The translations under genes were made by a program, and so were the position numbers. The notes beneath the pieces are model-generated. The model did no database searches. It worked only from the letters and a program-made list of their open reading frames with translations, and was not told the DNA's origin. Below, piece after piece: positions 3,251 through 54,639 of a DNA stretch of 64,000 nt; positions within the stretch are counted from its first letter, which is position 1; each line of letters begins with the position of its first letter. The stretch is from an uncultured Candidatus Saccharibacteria bacterium (GTDB taxonomy: Bacteria; Patescibacteriota; Minisyncoccia; Phycocordibacterales; SBAW01), in the NCBI GenBank assembly GCA_964650645.1, contig CAZYUH010000001.1:475099-539098 (forward strand), read 5' to 3'.

Positions 3251-5032
3251 ATGAAAGTATCCCGCAATTGGCTCCAGAAATTCTTCGATGAACCGCTGCC
3301 CGACGCGCAGGCGCTGTCCGATGCGCTCACGTTCCACGTATTCGAGATAGACGGGATAGAAAAGCGCGGCGACGACGACATTCTCGACGTCAAGGTAACG
3401 GCCAACCGCGGGCACGACTGCCTGTGCCACCGCGGAATCGCCAAGGAGCTCTCGGCCATCCTCAGGCTGCCTCTCAAGGACGACCCGTTCGCGCTGCAGT
3501 TCGACATGTCGAAGAAGGCGGAAGCGGTGACCCTCAGCATAGAAGATCCGGCGCTGTGCCGCCGCTACATTGCCGGGCATTTCACCGGCGTGAAGGTGGG
3601 CCCGAGTCCCGCGTGGCTCTCGCAGGCGCTCGAGGCGATGGGCCAGCGAAGCGTCAACAACGTGGTGGACATGACCAATCTCGTGATGTTCAACACGGGC
3701 CAGCCGCTGCACGCGTTCGACGCCAAGCGCCTCGGCTCTCTAAATATCGGCGTGCGCGCCGCGCGCGAGGGTGAATCGCTTGAAGCTTTGGATAAAAAGA
3801 CATACGAGCTTAATTCTTCGCAGCTGGTCATTGCCGCGGCCGGCAGGCCGGTGGGCATCGCGGGCGTCAAGGGCGGCGAGGCCGACAGGATAGACGAGAG
3901 CACGACAGATGTCATCATCGAGGCGGCGACCTTTGACGGCGTCGCCGTGCGCCGGGCGGCCCAGGCGCTCAAGCTGCGCACCGACGCCTCGAGCAGGTTC
4001 GAGCAGGGACTAAGCCCGTACCTGGCCGAGGTCGGCATGCGCCAGATGGCCAAGCTGCTCGTGGATCTTGCCGGCGCTACGTGCGAGGGCTTCGTCGATA
4101 TGTATCCCGATCCGCAGAAGCAGGCGTACGTCGCGGTCACGGTCGAGAAGATAAACGCGGTGCTGGGCACGGCGCTTACCGGCGCGGATATTGCGGACGC
4201 GTTCGCGCGCCTGGGCTTTGCATACAAGGAAGAAGACGGCGTGTTCGAGGTCCAGCCGCCGCCCGAGCGCCTCGATATAACGATCGCCGAAGACCTTATA
4301 GAAGAAGTGGCGCGCATCGTCGGCTACGACAAGATTCCGGCAATCCCGCTGCCTGCGCCCGCCGCGGCGCCGGAAATAAGCAAGAACTTTTACGCGGCGG
4401 AAAAGGCCCGCGAGGAGTGGACGGCCAAGGGCTACAGCGAGGTGTTCACGTCCGTGTTCGCCGACCGCGGCGAGCGCGTCGTGCTCAACAAGGTGGACGG
4501 CGTGCGCCCGTACTTGCGCGACTCGCTCATCCCGGGGCTTACCGCCGCGCTCGCAAAAAACAAGCCCAACCGCGACCTCCTGGGCCTTAAGGAAATAAGG
4601 CTGTTTGAAATCGGCACGGTCTGGAAGGGTGGCAAGGAAGCCGTGATGCTCGGCACGGTGAGCGAGAAGGAGAAAGCGGCCGAGGTGCCGCTGGTCGGGG
4701 CCGAAACCCCCGAAGCGTACGACGACCTCCCGCTCTCGCAGGCGGCGCGCTACAGCGCCTTCTCGAAGTACCCCTGCATCGTGCGCGACATCGCCGTGTG
4801 GGTCCCGCCCGACACCAGCGCCGAGGCGTTCAAAGAGAACGTGCGGGCCGAGGCGGGCGAATTGCTTCAAAATATATTCCTGTTCGACACGTTTTCAAAA
4901 GAGGGGAGGGTGTCGCTCGCGCTGCGCCTGGTGTTCCAGTCGTTCGAGCGCACGCTCACCGAGGCAGAGGCGAATGCCGCGATGGAGAGGGTCGCGTCAA
5001 AGCTCAGGGCGCAGGGTTTCGAAATACGATAA
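3251..5032 (+). CDS. pheT: phenylalanine--tRNA ligase beta subunit (short, 593 aa)
   Basis: Starts MKVSRNWLQKFFDEPLP, 4 nt after the pheS stop; B3/4 and B5 region similarity; short C-terminus. Confidence 0.88.
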   Translation: MKVSRNWLQKFFDEPLPDAQALSDALTFHVFEIDGIEKRGDDDILDVKVTANRGHDCLCHRGIAKELSAILRLPLKDDPFALQFDMSKKAEAVTLSIEDPALCRRYIAGHFTGVKVGPSPAWLSQALEAMGQRSVNNVVDMTNLVMFNTGQPLHAFDAKRLGSLNIGVRAAREGESLEALDKKTYELNSSQLVIAAAGRPVGIAGVKGGEADRIDESTTDVIIEAATFDGVAVRRAAQALKLRTDASSRFEQGLSPYLAEVGMRQMAKLLVDLAGATCEGFVDMYPDPQKQAYVAVTVEKINAVLGTALTGADIADAFARLGFAYKEEDGVFEVQPPPERLDITIAEDLIEEVARIVGYDKIPAIPLPAPAAAPEISKNFYAAEKAREEWTAKGYSEVFTSVFADRGERVVLNKVDGVRPYLRDSLIPGLTAALAKNKPNRDLLGLKEIRLFEIGTVWKGGKEAVMLGTVSEKEKAAEVPLVGAETPEAYDDLPLSQAARYSAFSKYPCIVRDIAVWVPPDTSAEAFKENVRAEAGELLQNIFLFDTFSKEGRVSLALRLVFQSFERTLTEAEANAAMERVASKLRAQGFEIR

Positions 5033-6411: not shown

Positions 6412-8484
<2,073 letters not shown>

Positions 8485-8592
8485 CTCCGTAAAAGCAAGC
8501 GTTCCGGAGTGCGGGAATTTTTTGCTAAAAATTCCCTAACCTCGATTCCGTCGAATCTACGGACACTCCGGAACGCTTGCTTTTGCTCCGTA
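8485..8592. repeat. MITE-like palindromic element: 21-bp near-perfect terminal inverted repeats (AAAAGCAAGCGTTCCGGAGTG / CACTCCGGAACGCTTGCTTTT) flanked by direct CTCCGTA, with a nested 10-bp hairpin
   Basis: Seen directly: arms at 8491-8512 and 8564-8584, direct CTCCGTA at 8485-8491 and 8586-8592, inner GGGAATTTTT-tgct-AAAAATTCCC hairpin; begins right after the gyrB stop codon. Confidence 0.5.
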
Positions 8593-8594
8593 CC

Positions 8595-8627
8595 AAAAAA
8601 CTCCCCGGATATTCCGGGGAGTTTTTT
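8595..8627. terminator. bidirectional terminator (A6-CTCCCCGG-atat-CCGGGGAG-T6)
   Basis: Perfect hairpin flanked by an A-tract and a T-tract between gyrB (+) and the CARDB gene (-). Confidence 0.75.
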
Positions 8628-8654
8628 GCATAGCGTATGTTATTCCGCGAAGCC

Positions 8655-9620
8655 CTAGAACACCTGGTAGGTCGTAACCGCGGTGTTGTTGTAGTCGCTC
8701 GACTCCTGCACCTGGTTCATGGGGTCGACCTCGATGGTCGCCTGGGCCTGGCCGCCGTAGTAGCCGCCCTGCGCCGGCACGACGTCGTAGCCGAGCGTGT
8801 AGACTATCCTGTCGCCCGGGTAGAGCATCTGCTGGCCGCCCGAAGGATAGACGTAGAGGGGCTGGTAGGGAAGCACGGCGTTGAAGGTCCAGCCCGCGGG
8901 CGCCGCGTTGGTGCCGATGTTGGTGATGACGAACTGGAGGCTGATGCGCGAGCCCGCCTGCGCCTGCGTCGGAGCGGCGGTAATCTGCACCGCGAGGTCG
9001 GGCGCGCCGTAAAGATTCTGGGTGCGGCCCGACGGGACGTAAGTCGTCGCGGGCTTGGCGGGCGTCACCGGCTTTGCAGCGGGGGCGGCCGGCTTGGGCT
9101 CGGCGGGCGCGGCCGGGGCGGCTGCGGGCGTGGTGCTCGCGCTCACGGTCGTCTTCGCCGTCCCTTTTACCGCTATGGTGCCGTCGGAGAGGCGGGTCGC
9201 GGCGACGGTAAGCGTGGTCGACGCCTCCTTAACGCCCGGCGCGAGCACGGGGATTATCGGCATGGACGAGGTCGCGTTCACGTAATTGAACGGCGTGTCG
9301 CACTTCACGAGCTGGAAGGCGCCGGTAGGGACGGGCGCGGCGAACGCGAGGCCCGGGGAGCAGGCGTAGGAAACGGCGTACGAGTACTCGCCGTCCTTGC
9401 CCGCATGCTTCCATGAAAGAGGGAACGCCTTGTCGGATACCGACTGCGCGGGGGCGGACGCGGTCAGGGTCTCCTTGGTCTGGCCGATGGAGCCGAAGAA
9501 CGTGGGGAGGTAGAACGCGAGCTGGATAATGCCCCATGCGCCCAGCAATAAAATAGCTATCAGGCCGATGACGGCTATGACGCGCAGGAAGTTCTCCCGG
9601 AACGTAGGTGTGGGTGCCAT
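8655..9620 (-). CDS. membrane-anchored surface protein with Pro/Ala/Thr-rich linker and C-terminal CARDB-like domain
   Basis: Internal ATG 9620 (MAPTPTFRENFLRVIAVIGLIAILLLGAWG signal anchor); linker AAPAAPAEPKPAAPAAKPVTPAKP; C-terminal pattern DLAVQITAAP...ITNIGTNAAP...EVDPMNQVQESSDYNNTA resembles CARDB. Confidence 0.55.
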   Translation of the reverse strand: MAPTPTFRENFLRVIAVIGLIAILLLGAWGIIQLAFYLPTFFGSIGQTKETLTASAPAQSVSDKAFPLSWKHAGKDGEYSYAVSYACSPGLAFAAPVPTGAFQLVKCDTPFNYVNATSSMPIIPVLAPGVKEASTTLTVAATRLSDGTIAVKGTAKTTVSASTTPAAAPAAPAEPKPAAPAAKPVTPAKPATTYVPSGRTQNLYGAPDLAVQITAAPTQAQAGSRISLQFVITNIGTNAAPAGWTFNAVLPYQPLYVYPSGGQQMLYPGDRIVYTLGYDVVPAQGGYYGGQAQATIEVDPMNQVQESSDYNNTAVTTYQVF

Positions 9621-16012: not shown

Positions 16013-16078
16013 TATCCCTCTAACAAAGTTGTATCAAGGTTCAACCTTGATATGGGTGGCTTTGATAGGGGTGCGGAG

Positions 16079-19000
16079 TTACAGGGCCTTGAGCGCCTCG
16101 GTGACTATCGAGAACTCGCCGTTGCGGTTGGAGATGCGGCCCTTTATCGCGATGCAGGCGTCGGGGCGCAGGATGGGCTTGTACTCGGCGTAGCTCTTGG
16201 GGAAGACCACTGCTTCGACCGCGCCCGAGAAGTCGGCAAGCTTTATAAACGCCATCTGGTCGCCATTCTTGGTAAGCAGAACGCGCAGGCTCTCTATCAT
16301 GCCGGCGACCACGGTGGTGGTGCCGGGGTAGGAGCGCTCCTTTATCTGCGCGAGGTTGAGGGGGCGCCGGTCGAGCTTCTCCTTGAACTTGTCCAAAGGG
16401 TGGCCCGAAACGTAGAGGCCCAGCAGCTCCTTCTCCCACGCGAGGCGCTGGTCCTGGGTCGCGGGCGGGGCCGGCGGCACGCGTATCTCGCTCATGCCCT
16501 CGACGTCGGCGAAGAGGGAATCGTGCATCTTCTCGGCGCCGGCGTCGCGGTGGTACTGCAGGAGCTGCTCGATGTGCGCGAGCATCGCGCCGCGCTCGCC
16601 CATGGAGTCGAGCGCCCCGCACATGATGAGGCTCTCGAGCCCCTTCTTGTTGAGCCCGTTGTCGGTGACGCGGGTAAGGAAGTCCGACAGCGAGGCGAAG
16701 GGGCCGTTCGCGCGCCGCTCATTGATGATGGAGTCGGCCACGCCGCGGCCGAAGTTCTTTATGGAATAGAGGCCGAAGCGGATGGAATCGGGGGAGGCCG
16801 GGGAGGTTTCGGAAGCTGTAGGCGTGGCGGAAGCAACAGGTGCCCCGGCGACGCTATCCTCCTCTCTTGCGGATCGGAGCGTCGCCGAAACACCTGTTGC
16901 TTCCGCCGGGCTTGCAGTCTCTGCCTTGCCTGCCGGAGCGCTCCCCAGTATCACCGTGAAGTCGCCGAAGGACTCGTTGACGTCGGGCGCGAGCATGGGG
17001 ATGCCCATGCGCTTGCACTCGGCGACCATGACGGACACCTTCTCCACGTCGCCCGCTTCCGCCGTGAGCACCGCGGTCATGTACTCGACCGGGTAGTTGG
17101 CCTTCATGTAGGCGGTCTGGTAGGAGACGCGCCCGTAGCTCGCAGAGTGCGCCTTGTTGAAGCCGTACGCGGCGAAGGGCTCAATCCATGCCCACACCTG
17201 CTCTGCCTTCTTCTGCGGCCACCCGGAATGCTCGACGCATCCCTTGATGAACTTCTCGCGCTGGGCGGCCATCTCCTCGGGGATCTTCTTGCCGACCGCC
17301 TTGCGGAACTTGTCCACCTCGCCCCAGCTGTAGCCCGCCAGCTGGTTGGCCATGATGAGCAGGTCGTCCTGGTACACGAGGATGCCGTAGGTCTGCCTGA
17401 GGATGGGCTCCATCGCGCGGTCGAGGTAGCGGATGAGCGCGGGGTTGTGCTTGCGCTCGATGTACTGCGGGATGAACTGCATCGGGCCCGGGCGGTAGAG
17501 CGCCACCATCGCGTTGATGTCGTGGATGGTCGTGGGGCGCAGCTCCTTGAGGAAGCGCGTCATGCCCGAGCCGTTGAGCTGGAACGTGGCCTCGGTCTCG
17601 CCGCGCGTGAGCATGTCGAAGGTGCGCTTGTCGTCCAGAGGTATCGCCTCGATGTCTATCCTTTCGCCGCGCGTGCGCTCCACGAGGTTGACCGCGTTGG
17701 CGAGGATGGTGAGGTTGCGTATGCCGAGGAAGTCGAACTTGGTGAGCCCCGCGCCGTCCTCGCCCACGGAGTACATGTCGTACTGCGTGATTATCTTGCC
17801 GCCCTTGGGGTCGAGCTGGAGCGGCGCGAACTCCACCAGCGGCACGGGCGAAATGACGACGCCCGCGGCGTGCACGCCCACGTGGCGCGCGCACCCTTCT
17901 ATCTTCTGGCCGAGGCCTATTATCTCGCGCACCTGCGGGTCGGCCTTGTGCATCTTCGCGAGCTCGGGGTTCTCCTGCATGGCGCGCTCGAGCGTCATGG
18001 GGAAGCCCTGGCTGCCCATCGGGATTTCCTTGGCTATCGCGTCGCCCAGGCCGTAGGGCAGGCCCAGCGCGCGGGCAACGTCGCGCACGACGCCGCGCGC
18101 GAGCATGGTGCCGAAGGTGCCTATCTGCGCCACATGCTCCGTGCCGTACTTGGCGCGGGCGTAGTCTATGACCTCGTCGCGCCTGTCGTCGGCGAAGTCC
18201 ATGTCGATGTCGGGGGCCGAGGGGCGCTCGGGGTTGAGGAAGCGCTCGAAGGGGATCTTGTAGGAAAGCGGCTCGATCTTGGTTATCCGCAGGAGGTAGG
18301 TGACCATGGAGCCCGCGACCGAGCCGCGGATGTTGGTGTAGATGTCGTTCTCGCGCGCGAAGCGTATGAGGTCCTCCACCACCAGGAAGTACGCCGCGTA
18401 GCCCTTGAACTTGATGATGCCCAGCTCGTACTCGAGCCGCTCCATGACGTCGTCGCGGCCCTCGAGCCCGCGCGGCCTGAGGCCCGCCAGGCACAGCTCG
18501 CGCAGGCGGTCGTCGGCGGTCACGCCCTCGGGCAGGGCGAAATGGGGGAACACGAACTTGCCGAGCGTGAGCTCCAGATTGCACTTTTCCGCGATCTCGA
18601 GCGACGCCTTCAGCGCCTCGTCGCCGAGCTTCGCGCGCATCTCGCTTTCGTTCAGGAACGAGTAGTCTATCTCCTCGCCGTCCATGGTCATGCCGTCGTC
18701 CGCCGGGCCGCGGTTCTCTATCGCGCGCATCGTCTCCCATGCGCGGCGGTCCTCCGGGGAAAGGTAGTACGTCTCGTGCGTCGGCATGATGTAGAAGTCG
18801 CCGCCCCAGCGCTTCCTGTGCGCGGCGCTCAGGGACGACTCCGCCCGCTCGAGTGCGACGAGGCCGCCCGCGCGCGCGTCGAGCATCGCGGCGGTGATGG
18901 GGCGGCCCTGGGGGTCCTCGATGTGCGACTCGGTGACGAGCTTCATGAGGTTCTTGTAGCCCTCGAGGTCCTTGGCGTAGAGCAAAATCCGGTGGTGGTC

Positions 19001-19216
19001 CTCAAGCGTCGCGTCGAGCCCGATGATGGGCTTGATGCCTTTCTTATCGCACTCCATGTAGAACTCTATCGCGCCGTAGAGGTTATCCATGTCGGTTAGC
19101 GCGAGCGCCTCGACGCCCTCTTCCTTGGCCTTCTTCACGAGATCGCCGATTTTGGGCAGGGCGCGCAGCAGCGAGAAGTGCGAGTGGACATGCAGCGGTA
19201 CGAAGGAGGCGGCCAT
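16079..19216 (-). CDS. dnaE: DNA polymerase III alpha subunit, with a low-complexity Ala/Ser/Thr/Pro insert
   Basis: PHP domain start (FVPLHVHSHFSLL), polymerase core motifs, OB fold near the C-terminus; insert AGKAETASPAEATGVSATLRSAREEDSVAGAPVASATPTASETSPASPDS. The antisense ORF 16052..19099 is spurious. Confidence 0.95.
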   Translation of the reverse strand: MAASFVPLHVHSHFSLLRALPKIGDLVKKAKEEGVEALALTDMDNLYGAIEFYMECDKKGIKPIIGLDATLEDHHRILLYAKDLEGYKNLMKLVTESHIEDPQGRPITAAMLDARAGGLVALERAESSLSAAHRKRWGGDFYIMPTHETYYLSPEDRRAWETMRAIENRGPADDGMTMDGEEIDYSFLNESEMRAKLGDEALKASLEIAEKCNLELTLGKFVFPHFALPEGVTADDRLRELCLAGLRPRGLEGRDDVMERLEYELGIIKFKGYAAYFLVVEDLIRFARENDIYTNIRGSVAGSMVTYLLRITKIEPLSYKIPFERFLNPERPSAPDIDMDFADDRRDEVIDYARAKYGTEHVAQIGTFGTMLARGVVRDVARALGLPYGLGDAIAKEIPMGSQGFPMTLERAMQENPELAKMHKADPQVREIIGLGQKIEGCARHVGVHAAGVVISPVPLVEFAPLQLDPKGGKIITQYDMYSVGEDGAGLTKFDFLGIRNLTILANAVNLVERTRGERIDIEAIPLDDKRTFDMLTRGETEATFQLNGSGMTRFLKELRPTTIHDINAMVALYRPGPMQFIPQYIERKHNPALIRYLDRAMEPILRQTYGILVYQDDLLIMANQLAGYSWGEVDKFRKAVGKKIPEEMAAQREKFIKGCVEHSGWPQKKAEQVWAWIEPFAAYGFNKAHSASYGRVSYQTAYMKANYPVEYMTAVLTAEAGDVEKVSVMVAECKRMGIPMLAPDVNESFGDFTVILGSAPAGKAETASPAEATGVSATLRSAREEDSVAGAPVASATPTASETSPASPDSIRFGLYSIKNFGRGVADSIINERRANGPFASLSDFLTRVTDNGLNKKGLESLIMCGALDSMGERGAMLAHIEQLLQYHRDAGAEKMHDSLFADVEGMSEIRVPPAPPATQDQRLAWEKELLGLYVSGHPLDKFKEKLDRRPLNLAQIKERSYPGTTTVVAGMIESLRVLLTKNGDQMAFIKLADFSGAVEAVVFPKSYAEYKPILRPDACIAIKGRISNRNGEFSIVTEALKAL

Positions 19217-20641: not shown

Positions 20642-21562
20642 ATGGCCAACAGGCACCTCTCACGCTCAGTCGTTCTCCAGACACTCTTCGAGTGGGACTT
20701 CCGACATCTCTCGGCGGACGACTGCCTCGAATCCCTCGAGCGCATCGCGGAGGAGTCCGTGCCGCAGGGCGGCGACGCGCCGTTCATGGAGGACCTCCTG
20801 AGGGGCGTGCTCAGCCGCGCCGCGGACCTCGACATGGTCATAGGCAAGGCCGCGCCCGAGTGGCCCATTGACCGCATCGCGCCAGTTGACCGCAACGTCC
20901 TGCGCCTCGGGCTCTACGAGCTCCTGTTCGCCGACCGCGAGAAGGTTCCCGCAAAGGTCGCCATCAACGAGGCGATAGAGCTCGCCAAGAGCTTCGGCGG
21001 CGAGCATTCGGGCCGCTTCGTCAACGGGGTGCTCGGCGCCGTCTACAAGGAATTGGGCGAGCCGGGCAAGGACGAGGTGTCCAAGAAGAAGAAGGAGGTT
21101 CCGTGGGAGGAGATGCCGCAGGAGCGCCTGGTGGGCGCGGTCGTCTACGCCCGCTCGGGCAACGAGCTGTACCTCGCGCTGGTGCACGACATCTTCGGCC
21201 ACTGGACCCTCTCCAAGGGCAAGCTCACTCCCGATGAGACGCCGGAGGCCGGCGTGGTGCGCAAGATAAAGGAGGAGATAGGCTTGAATATCGAGCCCGA
21301 GCTGAGGCTGGGCGAGAACGAGTACGTCGCTTCCGACCCTGCGGCCGGCAAGAAGCGCAAGCACGTCATCTACTTCCTCGCGAAGTCGCCGTTCGCCGAG
21401 GTGGAGCTCGCTAAGAAGGGCGGCTTGGACGACGCGCGCTGGTTCAAGCTCCAGGACGCGCTCGAATTGAATTTTTACGAGGACATGCTTCCCATCGTCA
21501 TGAAGGCTGTCGAGCACCTCGGCGCCGATGCGAAAGGTAGAGCGAAGCTGAACGCTAATTAG
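20642..21562 (+). CDS. nusB: transcription antitermination factor NusB fused to a C-terminal NUDIX hydrolase domain (306 aa)
   Basis: N-terminal about 150 aa contains KVAINEAIELAKSFGGEHSGRFVNGVLGAV (NusB signature); C-terminal part has a Nudix box KGKLTPDETPEAGVVRKIKEEIGLNI and Nudix fold. Confidence 0.85.
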   Translation: MANRHLSRSVVLQTLFEWDFRHLSADDCLESLERIAEESVPQGGDAPFMEDLLRGVLSRAADLDMVIGKAAPEWPIDRIAPVDRNVLRLGLYELLFADREKVPAKVAINEAIELAKSFGGEHSGRFVNGVLGAVYKELGEPGKDEVSKKKKEVPWEEMPQERLVGAVVYARSGNELYLALVHDIFGHWTLSKGKLTPDETPEAGVVRKIKEEIGLNIEPELRLGENEYVASDPAAGKKRKHVIYFLAKSPFAEVELAKKGGLDDARWFKLQDALELNFYEDMLPIVMKAVEHLGADAKGRAKLNAN

Positions 21563-21570
21563 ACACATGT

Positions 21571-22263
21571 ATGGCAGCCGATTTCAATACGTTCCAGCAA
21601 AAGCTCGGGCTCGAGTTTAACGAGCCCGACCTCCTGCGCCAGGCCTTCACGCACCGCTCCTACCTCAACGAGCACCGCGGCGAGGTAAAGGGCCACAACG
21701 AGCGGCTGGAGTTCCTGGGCGACGCCGTTTTGGAGCTCATCGCCACGCACTTTTTGTACGAGAAGTTCCCGACGCAGACCGAGGGCGACCTCACGGCGTA
21801 CCGCGCCGCGCTCGTCAACGCGGTAACGTGCGCCGAAGTGGCGCAGGAGCTGGGCATGAACGACTGCCTCCTCTTGTCGCGCGGCGAGGCGAAAGACACC
21901 GGCCGCGCGCGCGGTATCCTCCTGGCGAACGCCTTCGAGGCGCTTGTCGGCGCTATTTACCTCGACCAGGGCTACGACGCCGCGCGCGAGTTCATCGCGG
22001 CGCACCTGTTCCCGAAAATAGACAACATCATCCAGAAGAAGCTCTGGCTCGACGCCAAGTCGTCCCTGCAGGAGAAAGTGCAGGACGTCGAGGGCGTGAC
22101 GCCGTCCTACAGCGTTTTGCGCGAGTGGGGGCCCGACCACGACAAGCACTTCGTCGTGGGCGTGCACGTGAAGGACAGGCTTTTGGCGCAGGGCGAGGGC
22201 AAGAGCAAGCAGGAGGCCGAGCAGGACGCCGCGCGCGCGGCGCTCGACGCGCGCGGGTGGTAG
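21571..22263 (+). CDS. rnc: ribonuclease III
   Basis: ERLEFLGDAVLEL catalytic signature and C-terminal dsRBD (KSKQEAEQDAARAAL). Confidence 0.92.
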   Translation: MAADFNTFQQKLGLEFNEPDLLRQAFTHRSYLNEHRGEVKGHNERLEFLGDAVLELIATHFLYEKFPTQTEGDLTAYRAALVNAVTCAEVAQELGMNDCLLLSRGEAKDTGRARGILLANAFEALVGAIYLDQGYDAAREFIAAHLFPKIDNIIQKKLWLDAKSSLQEKVQDVEGVTPSYSVLREWGPDHDKHFVVGVHVKDRLLAQGEGKSKQEAEQDAARAALDARGW

Positions 22264-27881: not shown

Positions 27882-28256
27882 ATGGCCACGGAGAAGGACC
27901 AGGAGTTTTTGGAATTCGTCGTCAAGGGGCTCGTCGAGCATCCCGAGGACATAAAAGTGAGCCGGGTCGTGGACGAGATGGGCGTTCTCCTGACGCTCGA
28001 CCTCAATGCCGAGGATATGGGCAAGGTCATAGGCCGCTCGGGCAATACCGCCAAGGCCATCCGCACCCTCCTGCGCGTCGTCGGGATGAAGCACAACGCG
28101 CGCGTCAATTTAAAGATTAACGAGCCGGTCGGCGGCCAGCGCAGCATGGACGCCGGCGGCTCAGCGGCCCAGGGCTGGGACGGCACCCACGAGGCGCCCG
28201 CCACTCCCGCCATGAAGTCCATAGACGAGGCCATGGGCGAGCTCGATAATTTCTAA
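27882..28256 (+). CDS. KH-domain RNA-binding protein (KhpA/YlqC-like)
   Basis: GxxG loop VIGRSGNTAKAIRTLL; conserved position after rpsP. Confidence 0.85.
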   Translation: MATEKDQEFLEFVVKGLVEHPEDIKVSRVVDEMGVLLTLDLNAEDMGKVIGRSGNTAKAIRTLLRVVGMKHNARVNLKINEPVGGQRSMDAGGSAAQGWDGTHEAPATPAMKSIDEAMGELDNF

Positions 28257-28378
28257 AGCTCCGCGAAATCGGCCGGCAAGCGATACCCGACTTTTCTGAT
28301 GAAAATCGGCTGATCCTCATTCCCGAGGGTCGTCAGACGATGCCTGCGGAGCCGCTTGCCGGCCGATTTCGCTTCGAC
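28257..28378 (+). repeat. structured intergenic element, copy A: CTCCGC / GAAATCGGCCGGCAAGCG stems enclosing a CCGAC-TTTTC-tgat-GAAAA-TCGG hairpin; begins at the stop codon
   Basis: Second copy at 53983..54092 (about 80% identical over about 110 nt) and a related core at 10424..10489; 18-bp inverted repeat GAAATCGGCCGGCAAGCG / CGCTTGCCGGCCGATTTC. Confidence 0.55.
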
Positions 28379-28380
28379 AC

Positions 28381-28416
28381 GCGAAAGCCGCCTGCAGGGC
28401 GGCTTTCGCTTTTGCG
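28381..28416 (+). terminator. intrinsic terminator (GAAAGCCGCC-tgcag-GGCGGCTTTC + GCTTTTG)
   Basis: 10-bp stem followed by a T-run. Confidence 0.65.
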
Positions 28417-29978: not shown

Positions 29979-30255
29979 GAATAGCGAAACCAACGGGCAG
30001 GCCGCGGGGGCCATGAGTGAGTATCGAGTGGGGGTTTCGATACAACTAAAGAGGTGTGGATACTTTCACCTAAAGCTTCATAAGGAAGCAGGGGAGCCCT
30101 TTGGGCGACCCGGATTTTTCGTGTTTTGGCTGTGTGCATAAGTCAGTTGACTCCTAAGCATTTGTGCGAATAGCCATTGCCAGGAAAGAGAGAGGTGGGT
30201 GCGTCGGGCGCAGGTGCGGGTCCCTTTATCAACGTCCCTTCATCTTACAATCATC

Positions 30256-37107
<6,852 letters not shown>

Positions 37108-53069: not shown

Positions 53070-53098
53070 TTGACAAATAGTTTTATAGGGTGTATAAT
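53070..53098 (+). promoter_or_regulatory. consensus promoter TTGACA-17-TATAAT
   Basis: Drives the small membrane gene at 53153; lies in an AT-richer patch (52880-53140). Confidence 0.65.
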
Positions 53099-53152
53099 TA
53101 GTGTGAAGTGGGCAGATAGGCTGTTCACGTTTTTCCGATGGGGGTAATTAGA

Positions 53153-53383
53153 ATGTTCGTTTCATACTGCGCTTGCGTTCCAGTGCTTCTGTTCGCCGCG
53201 CTCAAGGCGTACTCCGTATTCCATTTCCATTTCGGCCTGAGCGTGCGGCAATCGCAGGCGATTGCGGTGCTGGCCTACCTGGCGGTCCTGTTCGCGGTAA
53301 ACGCGCTGGCGTGGTCGGTATACGGGAAGAAAGAAGCCGTGCCGAAGTATGAGCTCGTTAAGGATCTTCCTAAAAGTTCTTGA
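53153..53383 (+). CDS. small membrane protein (76 aa, 2 TM)
   Basis: ATG 53153; hydrophobic segments CACVPVLLFAALKAY and AIAVLAYLAVLFAVNALAW; double-hairpin terminator 53395-53445. Confidence 0.45.
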   Translation: MFVSYCACVPVLLFAALKAYSVFHFHFGLSVRQSQAIAVLAYLAVLFAVNALAWSVYGKKEAVPKYELVKDLPKSS

Positions 53384-53394
53384 ACAGGCGGCGC

Positions 53395-53445
53395 AAGCCG
53401 CCCTAAAGGCCCCGCACGTGCGGGGCCTTTTCTTTTCAAGCGGGA
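53395..53445 (+). terminator. double-hairpin terminator (GGCGGC-gcaa-GCCGCC; GGCCCCG-cacgtg-CGGGGCC + TTTTCTTTTC)
   Basis: Sequence-visible stems and T-tract. Confidence 0.7.
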
Positions 53446-53460
53446 GTGTACAATAGGGGC

Positions 53461-53982
53461 ATGCATACCATAAGGCCCAAGGAGGACCAGAACTTCTGGA
53501 ACTTCCTCTTTTCCGTATTCTTTATCATCGTGCTGGTCGCGGGGCTCTGGGTCATGCGCGACGTGCGCGGCGGGTTCCTGACCTCGGTGCCGGCGTTCGA
53601 CGCCTTCATGATGGCCTTCGCCGCGTTCCGCATCACGCGCCTCGTGGTGTACGACAAGATAACCCGCTGGTTCCGCGAGCTCTTCGCGAAGAGGGCCGTA
53701 GTGGAGCGCGACGGCGTGCCGTACGTGGAAGTGACGCCGTACTCCAAGGGCTTTGCCGCCACGGTCTACGACCTCCTCAGCTGCCCGTGGTGCATCGGCA
53801 TCTGGTCCTCGGCCATAGTCGTGTTCGCGTACTTCATATTCCCGTGGGCGTGGTCGGTCATCTTCTTCCTCGCCATCGCGGGCGCAGGCTCGCTCCTGCA
53901 GGTTATCGCGAACGGTGTCGGCTGGCGCGCCGAGATCCTCAAGATGGAGGCCCAGGAGCAGAAGCGCGACCTGCGCTTGTAA
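53461..53982 (+). CDS. DUF1360-family membrane protein (CPWCIGIW motif)
   Basis: ATG 53461 after AGGGGC; TM helices and the conserved LSCPWCIGIWSS segment. Confidence 0.6.
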   Translation: MHTIRPKEDQNFWNFLFSVFFIIVLVAGLWVMRDVRGGFLTSVPAFDAFMMAFAAFRITRLVVYDKITRWFRELFAKRAVVERDGVPYVEVTPYSKGFAATVYDLLSCPWCIGIWSSAIVVFAYFIFPWAWSVIFFLAIAGAGSLLQVIANGVGWRAEILKMEAQEQKRDLRL

Positions 53983-54092
53983 AGGCTCCGCAAATCCTGA
54001 CCGGCAAGCGGTACCCGGCTTTTCTGGGGAAAACCGGCTGATCCTCGGTCGCCGCCTGCGGAGCCGCTTGCCGGTCAGATTCGCTCCGCATC
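53983..54092 (+). repeat. structured intergenic element, copy B (homolog of 28257..28378), begins at the stop codon; flanked by direct GCTCCGC
   Basis: GCTCCGCaaatcctgaCCGGCAAGCGGTACCCGGCTTTTCTGGGGAAAACCGGCTGATCCTC...CTGCGGAGCCGCTTGCCGGtcagattcGCTCCGC; compensatory A:T -> G:C change in the inner hairpin relative to copy A. Confidence 0.55.
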
Positions 54093-54127
54093 AAAAAAAC
54101 TCCCCGAGGGGAGTTTTTTCGCGAAAT
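54093..54127. terminator. bidirectional terminator (A7-CTCCCC-gag-GGGGAG-T6), same type as the one after gyrB
   Basis: Perfect hairpin with flanking A-tract and T-tract. Confidence 0.75.
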
Positions 54128-54143
54128 TGATTCCGCGGAGCCT

Positions 54144-54614
54144 TTAGAACCTGACCGGAATCTCGAGCGACTTGTCGTTCTCGGGGAGGCCGGAGGGGTT
54201 GTCGTTGCGCAGCACTACGGTGCCCACGGAGCCCGCGGGCTGGGCCGGGAAGGGGAGCGTTATCATGAACGGCACGTACTCCTCGGTCATCCAGTCGCCC
54301 TGCGCCTGCGCCGGGCCTTCGGCTATGACCGCGCCCGCCGCGTCCTTTATCTGGACGGGGAAGGAGGCCTCGAAGTACCAGGTGCCGCGCGCGCGGCCCC
54401 ACATGGTGAGCGGCGAGGAGATCGAGTCGTTGTCCTTGAGGGACTCGACGACCAGCAAGTCCTCGTAGGAGGGGTTCGGCGCCGGCGGCGTCGTGGCCGC
54501 CTGGCCGTCGCCCAGCGTCGGGGCCTTGGTGTTGCCCGGGAGCATGAAAAGGATAATGGCCGCGATAATGATAAGTATGCCCACTATGATGACCGCCCAT
54601 CCTGTCTTGTTCAT
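54144..54614 (-). CDS. membrane-anchored hypothetical protein (N-terminal TM, Pro/Thr linker, beta-rich domain)
   Basis: ATG 54614; TATACT -10 ends 6 nt upstream, so leaderless; last gene of the GH130 operon direction. Confidence 0.5.
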   Translation of the reverse strand: MNKTGWAVIIVGILIIIAAIILFMLPGNTKAPTLGDGQAATTPPAPNPSYEDLLVVESLKDNDSISSPLTMWGRARGTWYFEASFPVQIKDAAGAVIAEGPAQAQGDWMTEEYVPFMITLPFPAQPAGSVGTVVLRNDNPSGLPENDKSLEIPVRF

Positions 54615-54639
54615 ATGCAAAGTATACCCGCGGCGCGCC

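Follow-up and report, generated by a model that had tools for sequence, protein, structure and literature searches.

Hairpin modules between stop codons and terminators in a lineage of Patescibacteria: a probable mobile or mosaic palindromic repeat

In the DNA analyzed here, a stretch of 64,000 nucleotides referred to as the window, a palindromic module termed copy B occupies positions 53983-54092 of the plus strand, between the stop codon of a DUF1360 gene and an intrinsic terminator. Copy B is probably a lineage-restricted, non-autonomous palindromic (foldback) mobile or mosaic repeat of the MITE/REPIN/BIME kind. It belongs to a family of modules of approximately 110 nt with no ORF inside. 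The arms of these modules differ in sequence between copies, and convergent spacers are filled by modules joined to one another, to remnants, and to a portable terminator. Protein neighbours assign the window to Paceibacterota or Candidatus Adlerbacteria-like Patescibacteria, and the loci for comparison (designated L with a number) come from assemblies of relatives.

The DUF1360 gene (53461-53982, plus strand) encodes a protein of 173 aa (Pfam PF07098, E=9.5e-24), the same length as its homologues. Its TAA stop is located at 53980-53982 and copy B abuts it, starting at the first following base (53983) as described in the initial annotation. The bases A-G, read from the sequence, precede the 5' heptamer GCTCCGC (53985-53991), a motif match that is found on the 5' side of nearly all family members. 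The outer stem is composed of a 5' arm of 19 nt (AATCCTGACCGGCAAGCGG, 53993-54011) and a 3' arm (54064-54082), both supported by the inverted-repeat search and by the folds; the 5' arm shows compensated differences relative to copy A and the L041 module. The inverted-repeat search placed the long repeat of copy B at 53997-54011 and 54064-54078, with 15/15 positions complementary. The dinucleotide TA lies between the 5' arm and hairpin 1 (54015-54037; CCGG-C-TTTTC TGGG GAAAA CCGG), which is A/T-rich and carries a bulged C. The following linker, CTGATCC (54038-54044), forms a junction that is conserved in the alignment and reads TAACC, TCAAGCC, or TACGC in other subfamilies. Next comes the variable hairpin-2 region (54045-54057), which is 25 nt long in copy A. 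The corresponding region of the L042 module (3880-4047) has about 60 extra nt, possibly a nested insertion. An internal GCGGAGC (54058-54064), detected as a minus-strand motif match, is the reverse complement of the flanking heptamers. The alignment indicated that this internal motif is present in the A, B, L041, and L006_1 types, reads ACGGA in the C type, and is absent in the L011/L037 type. Pairing of the 5' heptamer with the internal GCGGAGC in a pseudoknot was rejected, as the 19-bp outer stem would preclude it sterically and not all types have the internal complement. The 3' heptamer GCTCCGC (54083-54089), also reported in the initial annotation as a direct repeat of the 5' one, is followed by ATC up to position 54092, and the consensus GCTCCGYAYC recurs in copies B and C, L006_1, and L037.

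Copy B is followed by the bidirectional intrinsic terminator A7-CTCCCC-GA-GGGGAG-T6 (54093-54119), which had been noticed previously; it is located between convergent genes and is paired in both the MFE and centroid folds. The fold of copy B plus the terminator had an energy of -73.3 kcal/mol (z=-4.7), and none of 200 shuffled sequences was as good. The remaining part of the spacer (54120-54143) appears to be a remnant of a minus-strand module, AGGCTCCGC-GGAATCAATTT-CGCG on the minus strand, which follows the stop of the convergent Gmad2-domain gene and resembles the post-gyrB spacer (BLAST, 8582-8661, 71%). The spacer ends in GCGGAGCCT, which abuts this stop. At the position of the remnant, the relative L006 has an intact module starting with GCGGAATCAAATTTTGCAGG. 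The Gmad2-domain gene (54144-54620, minus strand; Pfam PF10648) has its stop at 54144-46, read as TTA on the plus strand, and its synteny was observed in L002, L003, and L006. A 15-nt inverted repeat (53977-91 with 54135-49), which takes in the two stop codons, delimits the spacer from one stop to the other. The initial annotation had missed the inverted heptamers, namely the internal GCGGAGC at 54058-64 and another (54135-41) that lies inside the remnant, at the distal end of the spacer. Upstream of the DUF1360 gene, a perfect match to a sigma-70-like promoter (TTGACA-17-TATAAT, 12/12) is present at 53070-53098, preceding a small ORF (53138-53383), and a strong terminator hairpin (53405-53430) lies after this ORF and just before the DUF1360 gene.

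BLAST analysis of the copy B region against the window detected copy A at 28251-28376, with 74.4% identity over 129 nt (E=6e-18), and a weaker likeness of the 3' flank, terminator, and far side of copy B to the post-gyrB spacer. The mean column identity of copies A and B was 78% by MAFFT, and global alignment gave 86% of the shorter sequence against a mean of 63% and a maximum of 71% for shuffled sequences. The earlier estimate of about 80% identity was therefore confirmed, at 74-86% depending on the alignment method. Copy A (28257-28377, plus strand; arms at 28263-82 and 28353-72) lies immediately downstream of the TAA that ends a KhpA-type KH-domain gene and is followed by a different terminator at about 28381-28413. 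The differences between the two copies were compensated both in the outer stem (GGCC/GGCC in A, GACC/GGTC in B) and in hairpin 1 (CCGA/TCGG in A, CCGG/CCGG in B). A hammerhead was considered for the CUGAUGA..GAAA of copy A and rejected, the motif not being kept in copy B (CUGGGGAAAA). Copy C (8485-8595, plus strand; arms at 8491-8511 and 8564-84) is a diverged member located after the TAA of gyrB and followed by a terminator of the ACTCCCC type of copy B (8594-8628). Its arm sequence is unrelated to those of A and B, with the order of parts being the same and the heptamers reading CTCCGT on the 5' side and GCTCCGT on the 3' side. The post-gyrB spacer (8485-8654) contains a remnant (..ATTCCGCGAAGCC) abutting the stop of a convergent CARDB-domain gene, and the spacer as a whole is homologous in layout to that of copy B.

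Copies A, B, and C were the only three long-range hairpins of the module type identified in the window by the inverted-repeat search and model R1, and the inverted-repeat arms of these copies, 15-21 nt long, were 100% complementary. Model R1 found the three copies together with two copies in L006, those in L011, L037, L041, and L042, and a truncated copy in L007, at 37-112 bits. Their common layout consists of a heptamer, a perfect outer stem of 18-23 bp, the A/T-rich hairpin 1, a short linker, the variable hairpin 2, the 3' arm, and a second heptamer. The outer-stem sequence varies widely between copies; hairpin 1 and the linker are conserved, and a strand-specific bulged pyrimidine occurs in hairpin 1 of three of the five subfamilies. 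In the whole window, Rfam gave no match at the gathering threshold, and at E<=10 there were only terminator-like partial matches far below that threshold. The longest inverted repeat of the window (16816-16917; arms of 40 nt, 83% complementary, 22 nt apart) is a separate feature, lying inside a large minus-strand ORF (16079-19216) that corresponds to DnaE in syntenic loci.

We also searched for copies beyond these loci. In about 512 kb of sequence from other Paceibacterota and from viral loci, no new copies were detected by model R2. A metagenome scan with a pattern of the 3' junction plus terminator gave two matches, one of which was real (L037) and the other due to chance (L036). The viral contig scans returned no match with the first pattern and seven with the second, none of them a copy by model R2, and no match to the module was obtained by BLAST against plasmids and phages. 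With three copies per 64 kb and absence from about 500 kb of other Paceibacterota loci, the copy number and spread of the family are modest. In the full-text literature, we found no description of such repeats in Patescibacteria or the Candidate Phyla Radiation (CPR), only incidental co-mentions with MITE or REP terms, and a MITE review did not mention Patescibacteria.

The orthologous sites of relatives were empty, filled, or occupied by another module. The DUF1360/Gmad2 site was empty in L002 and L003 (DUF1360 82% identical), where the two genes overlap by 4 nt and there is neither an element nor a terminator. In L004 (DUF1360 71%), the site reads TAG-AGCTTCGC-ATAAC-terminator, with one heptamer and no module. 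L006, the closest relative (DUF1360 86%), has at this site a module of the same architecture with a wholly different outer stem and the same terminator after it, and a further intact module that follows the Gmad2 stop on the minus strand. Another module variant was identified at the DUF1360 site of L011 (DUF1360 74%). Among 27 loci of species-representative genomes, 25 had an empty DUF1360 site; the module was present only in L011 and the heptamer only in L010, which is the same as L004. The gyrB/CARDB site was empty in L038 (gyrB 92% identical), with a spacer of 47 nt and a different terminator. In L041 (gyrB 98% identical), an A-type module in the opposite orientation (6991-7099, minus strand) fills the whole 109-nt spacer from stop to stop; its interior is identical to that of copy A, its arms are compensated, and no recognizable intrinsic terminator was found in this spacer. 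Plus-strand modules of the L011 subfamily are located at the gyrB site in L042 (gyrB 93%) and L037, and the KhpA site was empty in L060 (KhpA 95% identical).

The gyrB and KhpA proteins of the window were 100% identical to proteins on one 754-kb contig. Within the species, copy C was present in 7/7 and an identical copy A in 10/10 strain-level contigs, and no insertion polymorphism was found for A or C among the strain-level contigs recovered. The contigs of L001 (9797-9834) and L007 (7152-7235) end inside modules, which is consistent with repeats breaking assemblies; the L008 contig ends 47 nt past the DUF1360 stop.

The sequence relationships among modules did not follow their loci. The pairwise identities were 80-86% in the subfamily of A, B, and L041 and 73-84% in that of L011, L037, and L042 (L011-L037, 84%; L011-L042, 79%; L037-L042, 73%), and each of these subfamilies spans different loci. 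Conversely, copy B and the L006 module at the orthologous site (L006_1) were 65% identical, which equals the shuffle baseline (mean 63%, maximum 71%). Thus, one subfamily occurs at several loci and one locus harbors several subfamilies. Together with the empty, filled, and swapped sites, this spread speaks for DNA that moves or is exchanged rather than for a UTR conserved by vertical descent. The initial annotation had called for a search for empty sites and had named the same sequence at orthologous positions with conserved flanks as the finding that would speak against insertion; empty sites were found in L002/L003, L004, L038, L060, and the 25 genome loci, and the sites of relatives were empty, occupied by another subfamily, or, in L041, occupied by an A/B-type copy in the opposite orientation.

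The flanking GCTCCGC had been interpreted as a target-site duplication (TSD). This interpretation was not supported, since the same type of heptamer is present at every locus and missing from most empty sites. Heptamers of the type RYTCCGY and close variants flank the members across loci and genomes: GCTCCGC and GCTTCGA in copy A, ATTCCGT and ACTCCGC in L006_1, GCTCCGC and GCTGCGC in L011, and GCTGCAC and GCTCCCC in L041. L042 is an exception, with inverted flanking hexamers (GGGAGC ... GCTCCC) rather than direct ones. The homology among A, B, and L041 extends from the stop codon to just past the 3' heptamer, which places both heptamers inside the repeated unit. Alignment of the copies with their flanks, which the initial annotation had proposed, thus yielded ends that take in both heptamers and no ordinary TSD. 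The heptamer was absent from the empty sites of L002, L038, and L060 and from 24 other DUF1360 sites, and a solo copy was found only in L004. Being present with every copy and lacking at most empty sites, the heptamer comes with the element. From its sequence distribution, we regard it as a part of the element or as a candidate junction or core site. The solo heptamer of L004 fits either a preferred target or the footprint of a deletion between two direct repeats. Hairpins stimulate deletion between direct repeats. Two sequences, GGAATCAATTTCGCG behind the Gmad2 stop of the window and AAAAACAAGGGTG in L007, resemble what a deletion would leave if the base of a stem were retained. Over the whole window, the motif GCTYCGY shows no enrichment, with 66 matches found and about 100 expected. 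The TAA of the DnaE-like gene (16040-16078, minus strand) is followed by CTCCGCACC, a heptamer-like motif without a module, which may be due to chance or may be a footprint. Insertion into overlapping stops with TA duplication (IS630/Correia-like) was also considered and was uninformative: any spacer between TAA or TAG stops is trivially flanked by TA, and the far end of copy A has no TA. The MITE reading of the initial annotation was therefore retained in part, in that the modules are small and multicopy, have inverted arms, and vary in presence at orthologous sites, but lack a target-site duplication.

Two occurrences of the terminator pattern AAAAACTCCCC..GGGGAGTTTTT were found in the window, one after copy B and one after the gyrB element, each beside a module, and none in 100 shuffled sequences; the near identity of the two terminators noted earlier was thereby verified. 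Among 60 loci, the ACTCCCC terminator type was observed only beside modules (L006, L042, and strain contigs), and L037 has a near-identical variant of it. The combination of this terminator and a module was found at two loci in at least four genomes, with the terminator joined to four different module subfamilies. Modules without it comprise A and L011, which have other terminators, and L041, which has none. The proposal that the element and terminator move as a unit was thus supported in part, by the restriction of this terminator type to module neighbourhoods, but not by the variety of its partner subfamilies or by the modules of A, L011, and L041. The modules and the terminator look like a mosaic of separable parts.

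The secondary structure was evaluated by a covariation test, in which 93.3% of cells were paired and 26/32 pairs had changed on both sides, a result reached by 0/500 shuffles; sliding the partners as a control gave at most 56% paired. In the helix of hairpin 1 (helix 2 of the test), 7/10 pairs had changed on both sides. Among about 190 cells of the outer stem, there were only 2 G-U pairs versus 9 other mismatches, and both strands folded equally well, as RNA and as DNA. C-A and U-C mismatches were found in L011 and L037, the more mismatched and presumably older copies. The almost exclusively Watson-Crick pairing, the equal folding of both strands, and the mismatches of the presumably older copies suggest that complementarity is made or maintained in DNA and decays with age, which fits the pattern better than long-term selection on an RNA helix. 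It is unlikely that the module is a selected cis-acting 3'UTR RNA (a 3'-end stabilizer, RNase III site, or terminator helper) that was recruited repeatedly, with mobility being secondary or recombinational. Such an RNA would agree with the strong compensatory covariation of a hypervariable stem sequence, with the sense orientation of 11/11 modules relative to the gene they follow (5' end next to its stop codon, 3' end towards the terminator), and with the fixation of A and C, which are invariant within the species. It would also agree with the L041 module, which fills a whole convergent spacer without a separate terminator, and with the presence of the genes for RNase III (21571-22263) and RNase R in the window. 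However, modules are missing from the same genes in close relatives, G-U pairs are almost absent in spite of the covariation, both strands fold equally, disruptive mismatches build up in diverged copies, the host genes (KhpA, DUF1360, gyrB, Gmad2, and CARDB) are functionally unrelated, and no Rfam match was obtained. The sense orientation and the position after stops could reflect selection on the transcript instead, and the orientation taken with the strand-specific bulge hints at either strand-specific recognition or selection on the transcript. A riboswitch or attenuator was ruled out, as copy B has no downstream gene, its neighbour being convergent.

Another explanation, which we consider quite improbable, is that the module is a substrate of single-stranded-hairpin recombination or transposition of the attC, IS200/IS605, or REP-RAYT-end kind, in which the bulged hairpin is read, the heptamers are cut, and GCGGAGC acts as a guide. 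The arms are hypervariable yet perfectly complementary with a conserved fold, a bulged pyrimidine is present in hairpin 1 of three of the five subfamilies, the same heptamer stands at both junctions with an internal complement that partly covaries (GCTCCGC/GCGGAGC in A and B, CTCCGT/ACGGA in C), and a solo heptamer exists in L004, all of which such a substrate would explain. On the other hand, the L011/L037/L042 and L006_2 types lack the internal complement, which is mismatched in L007, neither attC R''/R' boxes nor a GTAG REP head are present in the sequence, the window and the fetched loci yielded no integrase or Y1 transposase, and housekeeping genes such as gyrB are not cassettes. It is very doubtful that the modules are substrates of a new structure-guided insertion system in CPR, in which the bulged hairpin 1 would be read and the heptamers cut with the help of GCGGAGC, with placement after stops; if true, this would be a stop-codon-homing, hairpin-dependent mobile element able to bring or replace a terminator. 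A chance palindrome or assembly artefact has a negligible probability: short GC-rich palindromes are common and the heptamer motif is not enriched, but the E-value of the A-B match, the identical copies in 7-10 independent assemblies, and the related copies in other genomes refute it.

The mobile or mosaic reading of copy B thus remains the preferred one, with the absence of an ordinary TSD, the low number of three copies per 64 kb, and the invariance of A and C within the species counting against it. A possible mechanism is that a trans-acting enzyme encoded outside the window would recognize the folded single strand and move or copy the module, with the heptamers serving as junction sites for movement. 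The short direct repeats and the hairpin would then favor precise or partial deletion, leaving solo heptamers and stem-base remnants. The module would be co-transcribed in the 3'UTR and would probably fold there into an extended dsRNA stem ahead of the terminator; this stem could alter mRNA 3'-end stability or, by analogy with Correia elements, be cut by the RNase III encoded in the window. The scan of window genes and the genes called in the fetched loci revealed no transposase, recombinase, or reverse transcriptase, and PF01797 (Y1 transposase) had no match in the loci examined. The scanned window genes are housekeeping ones (gyrB, ribonucleotide reductase, DnaG, sigma-70, RNase III, and RNase R). 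Homologous recombination of the flanking genes, and not transposition, could account for part of the spacer swapping between strains.

We compared the modules with known systems. Correia elements of Neisseria and ERIC/IRU of enterobacteria are similarly about 100-150 nt long and non-coding, with inverted ends forming a long stem; they are intergenic, often at gene 3' ends, co-transcribed, variable in presence between strains, and plausible RNase III substrates (PMC2649163, PMC10969869), and the RNA hairpins of Correia elements are cut by RNase III (PMC2649163). Unlike Correia elements, which have a conserved inverted-repeat sequence and a TA duplication, the modules have hypervariable arms, no locus-specific duplication, a conserved heptamer at both ends, and a fixed orientation relative to the stop codon and terminator. 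REPINs, the documented analogue of palindromic repeats (PMC3116915), and the REP-RAYT and BIME systems share with the modules the form of extragenic palindromic doublets with long hairpins after stops or between convergent genes, the mosaics with other motifs, and a lineage-restricted distribution that is stable within species (PMC3116915, PMC3337134). In contrast to REPINs, the modules come with no RAYT gene in the loci examined, have a far lower density (3 per 64 kb), and form a three-way structure with two inner hairpins rather than two inverted REPs. In Streptococcus pneumoniae, SPRITE is a terminator-like element and BOX, RUP, and SPRITE cluster (PMC10969869); they resemble the present family as a portable rho-independent terminator-like repeat and as modular, clustering, and nesting repeats (PMC10969869, PMC3049150). 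Their sequences are unrelated and from another phylum, however, and the terminator here is a separable partner of the hairpin module. Integron attC sites likewise stand directly after stop codons, combine a variable sequence with a conserved hairpin containing extrahelical bases, and have short core repeats at their junctions. This identity was rejected, as the modules have no RYYYAAC ... GTTRRRY boxes, integrase, or cassette array, and their neighbours are housekeeping genes (gyrB, KhpA, DUF1360, and ribonucleotide reductase). New relative to Correia/ERIC, REPIN/BIME, and SPRITE are the hypervariable complementary arms, the heptamers replacing a TSD, the fixed post-stop orientation, and the portable terminator partner. 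Arms that vary widely yet stay complementary, a heptamer at each junction, and an unchanging orientation point to a mechanism that depends on structure.

The genomes of CPR/Patescibacteria are very small and tightly packed. In some relatives, the genes flanking the copy B site overlap. Inserts of 110-270 nt between stops, consisting of a single module or two and in some cases including a terminator, indicate that hairpin DNA, whether selfish or recruited, is active in genomes as compact as these. Through the modules, core genes such as gyrB differ in their 3'UTRs and terminators among strains with 98% identity in the gyrB protein. The modules also break metagenomic assemblies and could serve as fine-scale strain markers.

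Two further gene arrangements were observed elsewhere in the window. The product encoded at 20642-21562 (306 aa), just upstream of the RNase III gene, has NusB and NUDIX domains in syntenic loci, an unusual fusion. A single ORF of about 2300 aa at 30199-37107, the syntenic product of which has RpoB (Rpb2_1-7) and RpoC (Rpb1_1, Rpb1_2 ...) domains, appears to be an rpoB-rpoC fusion.
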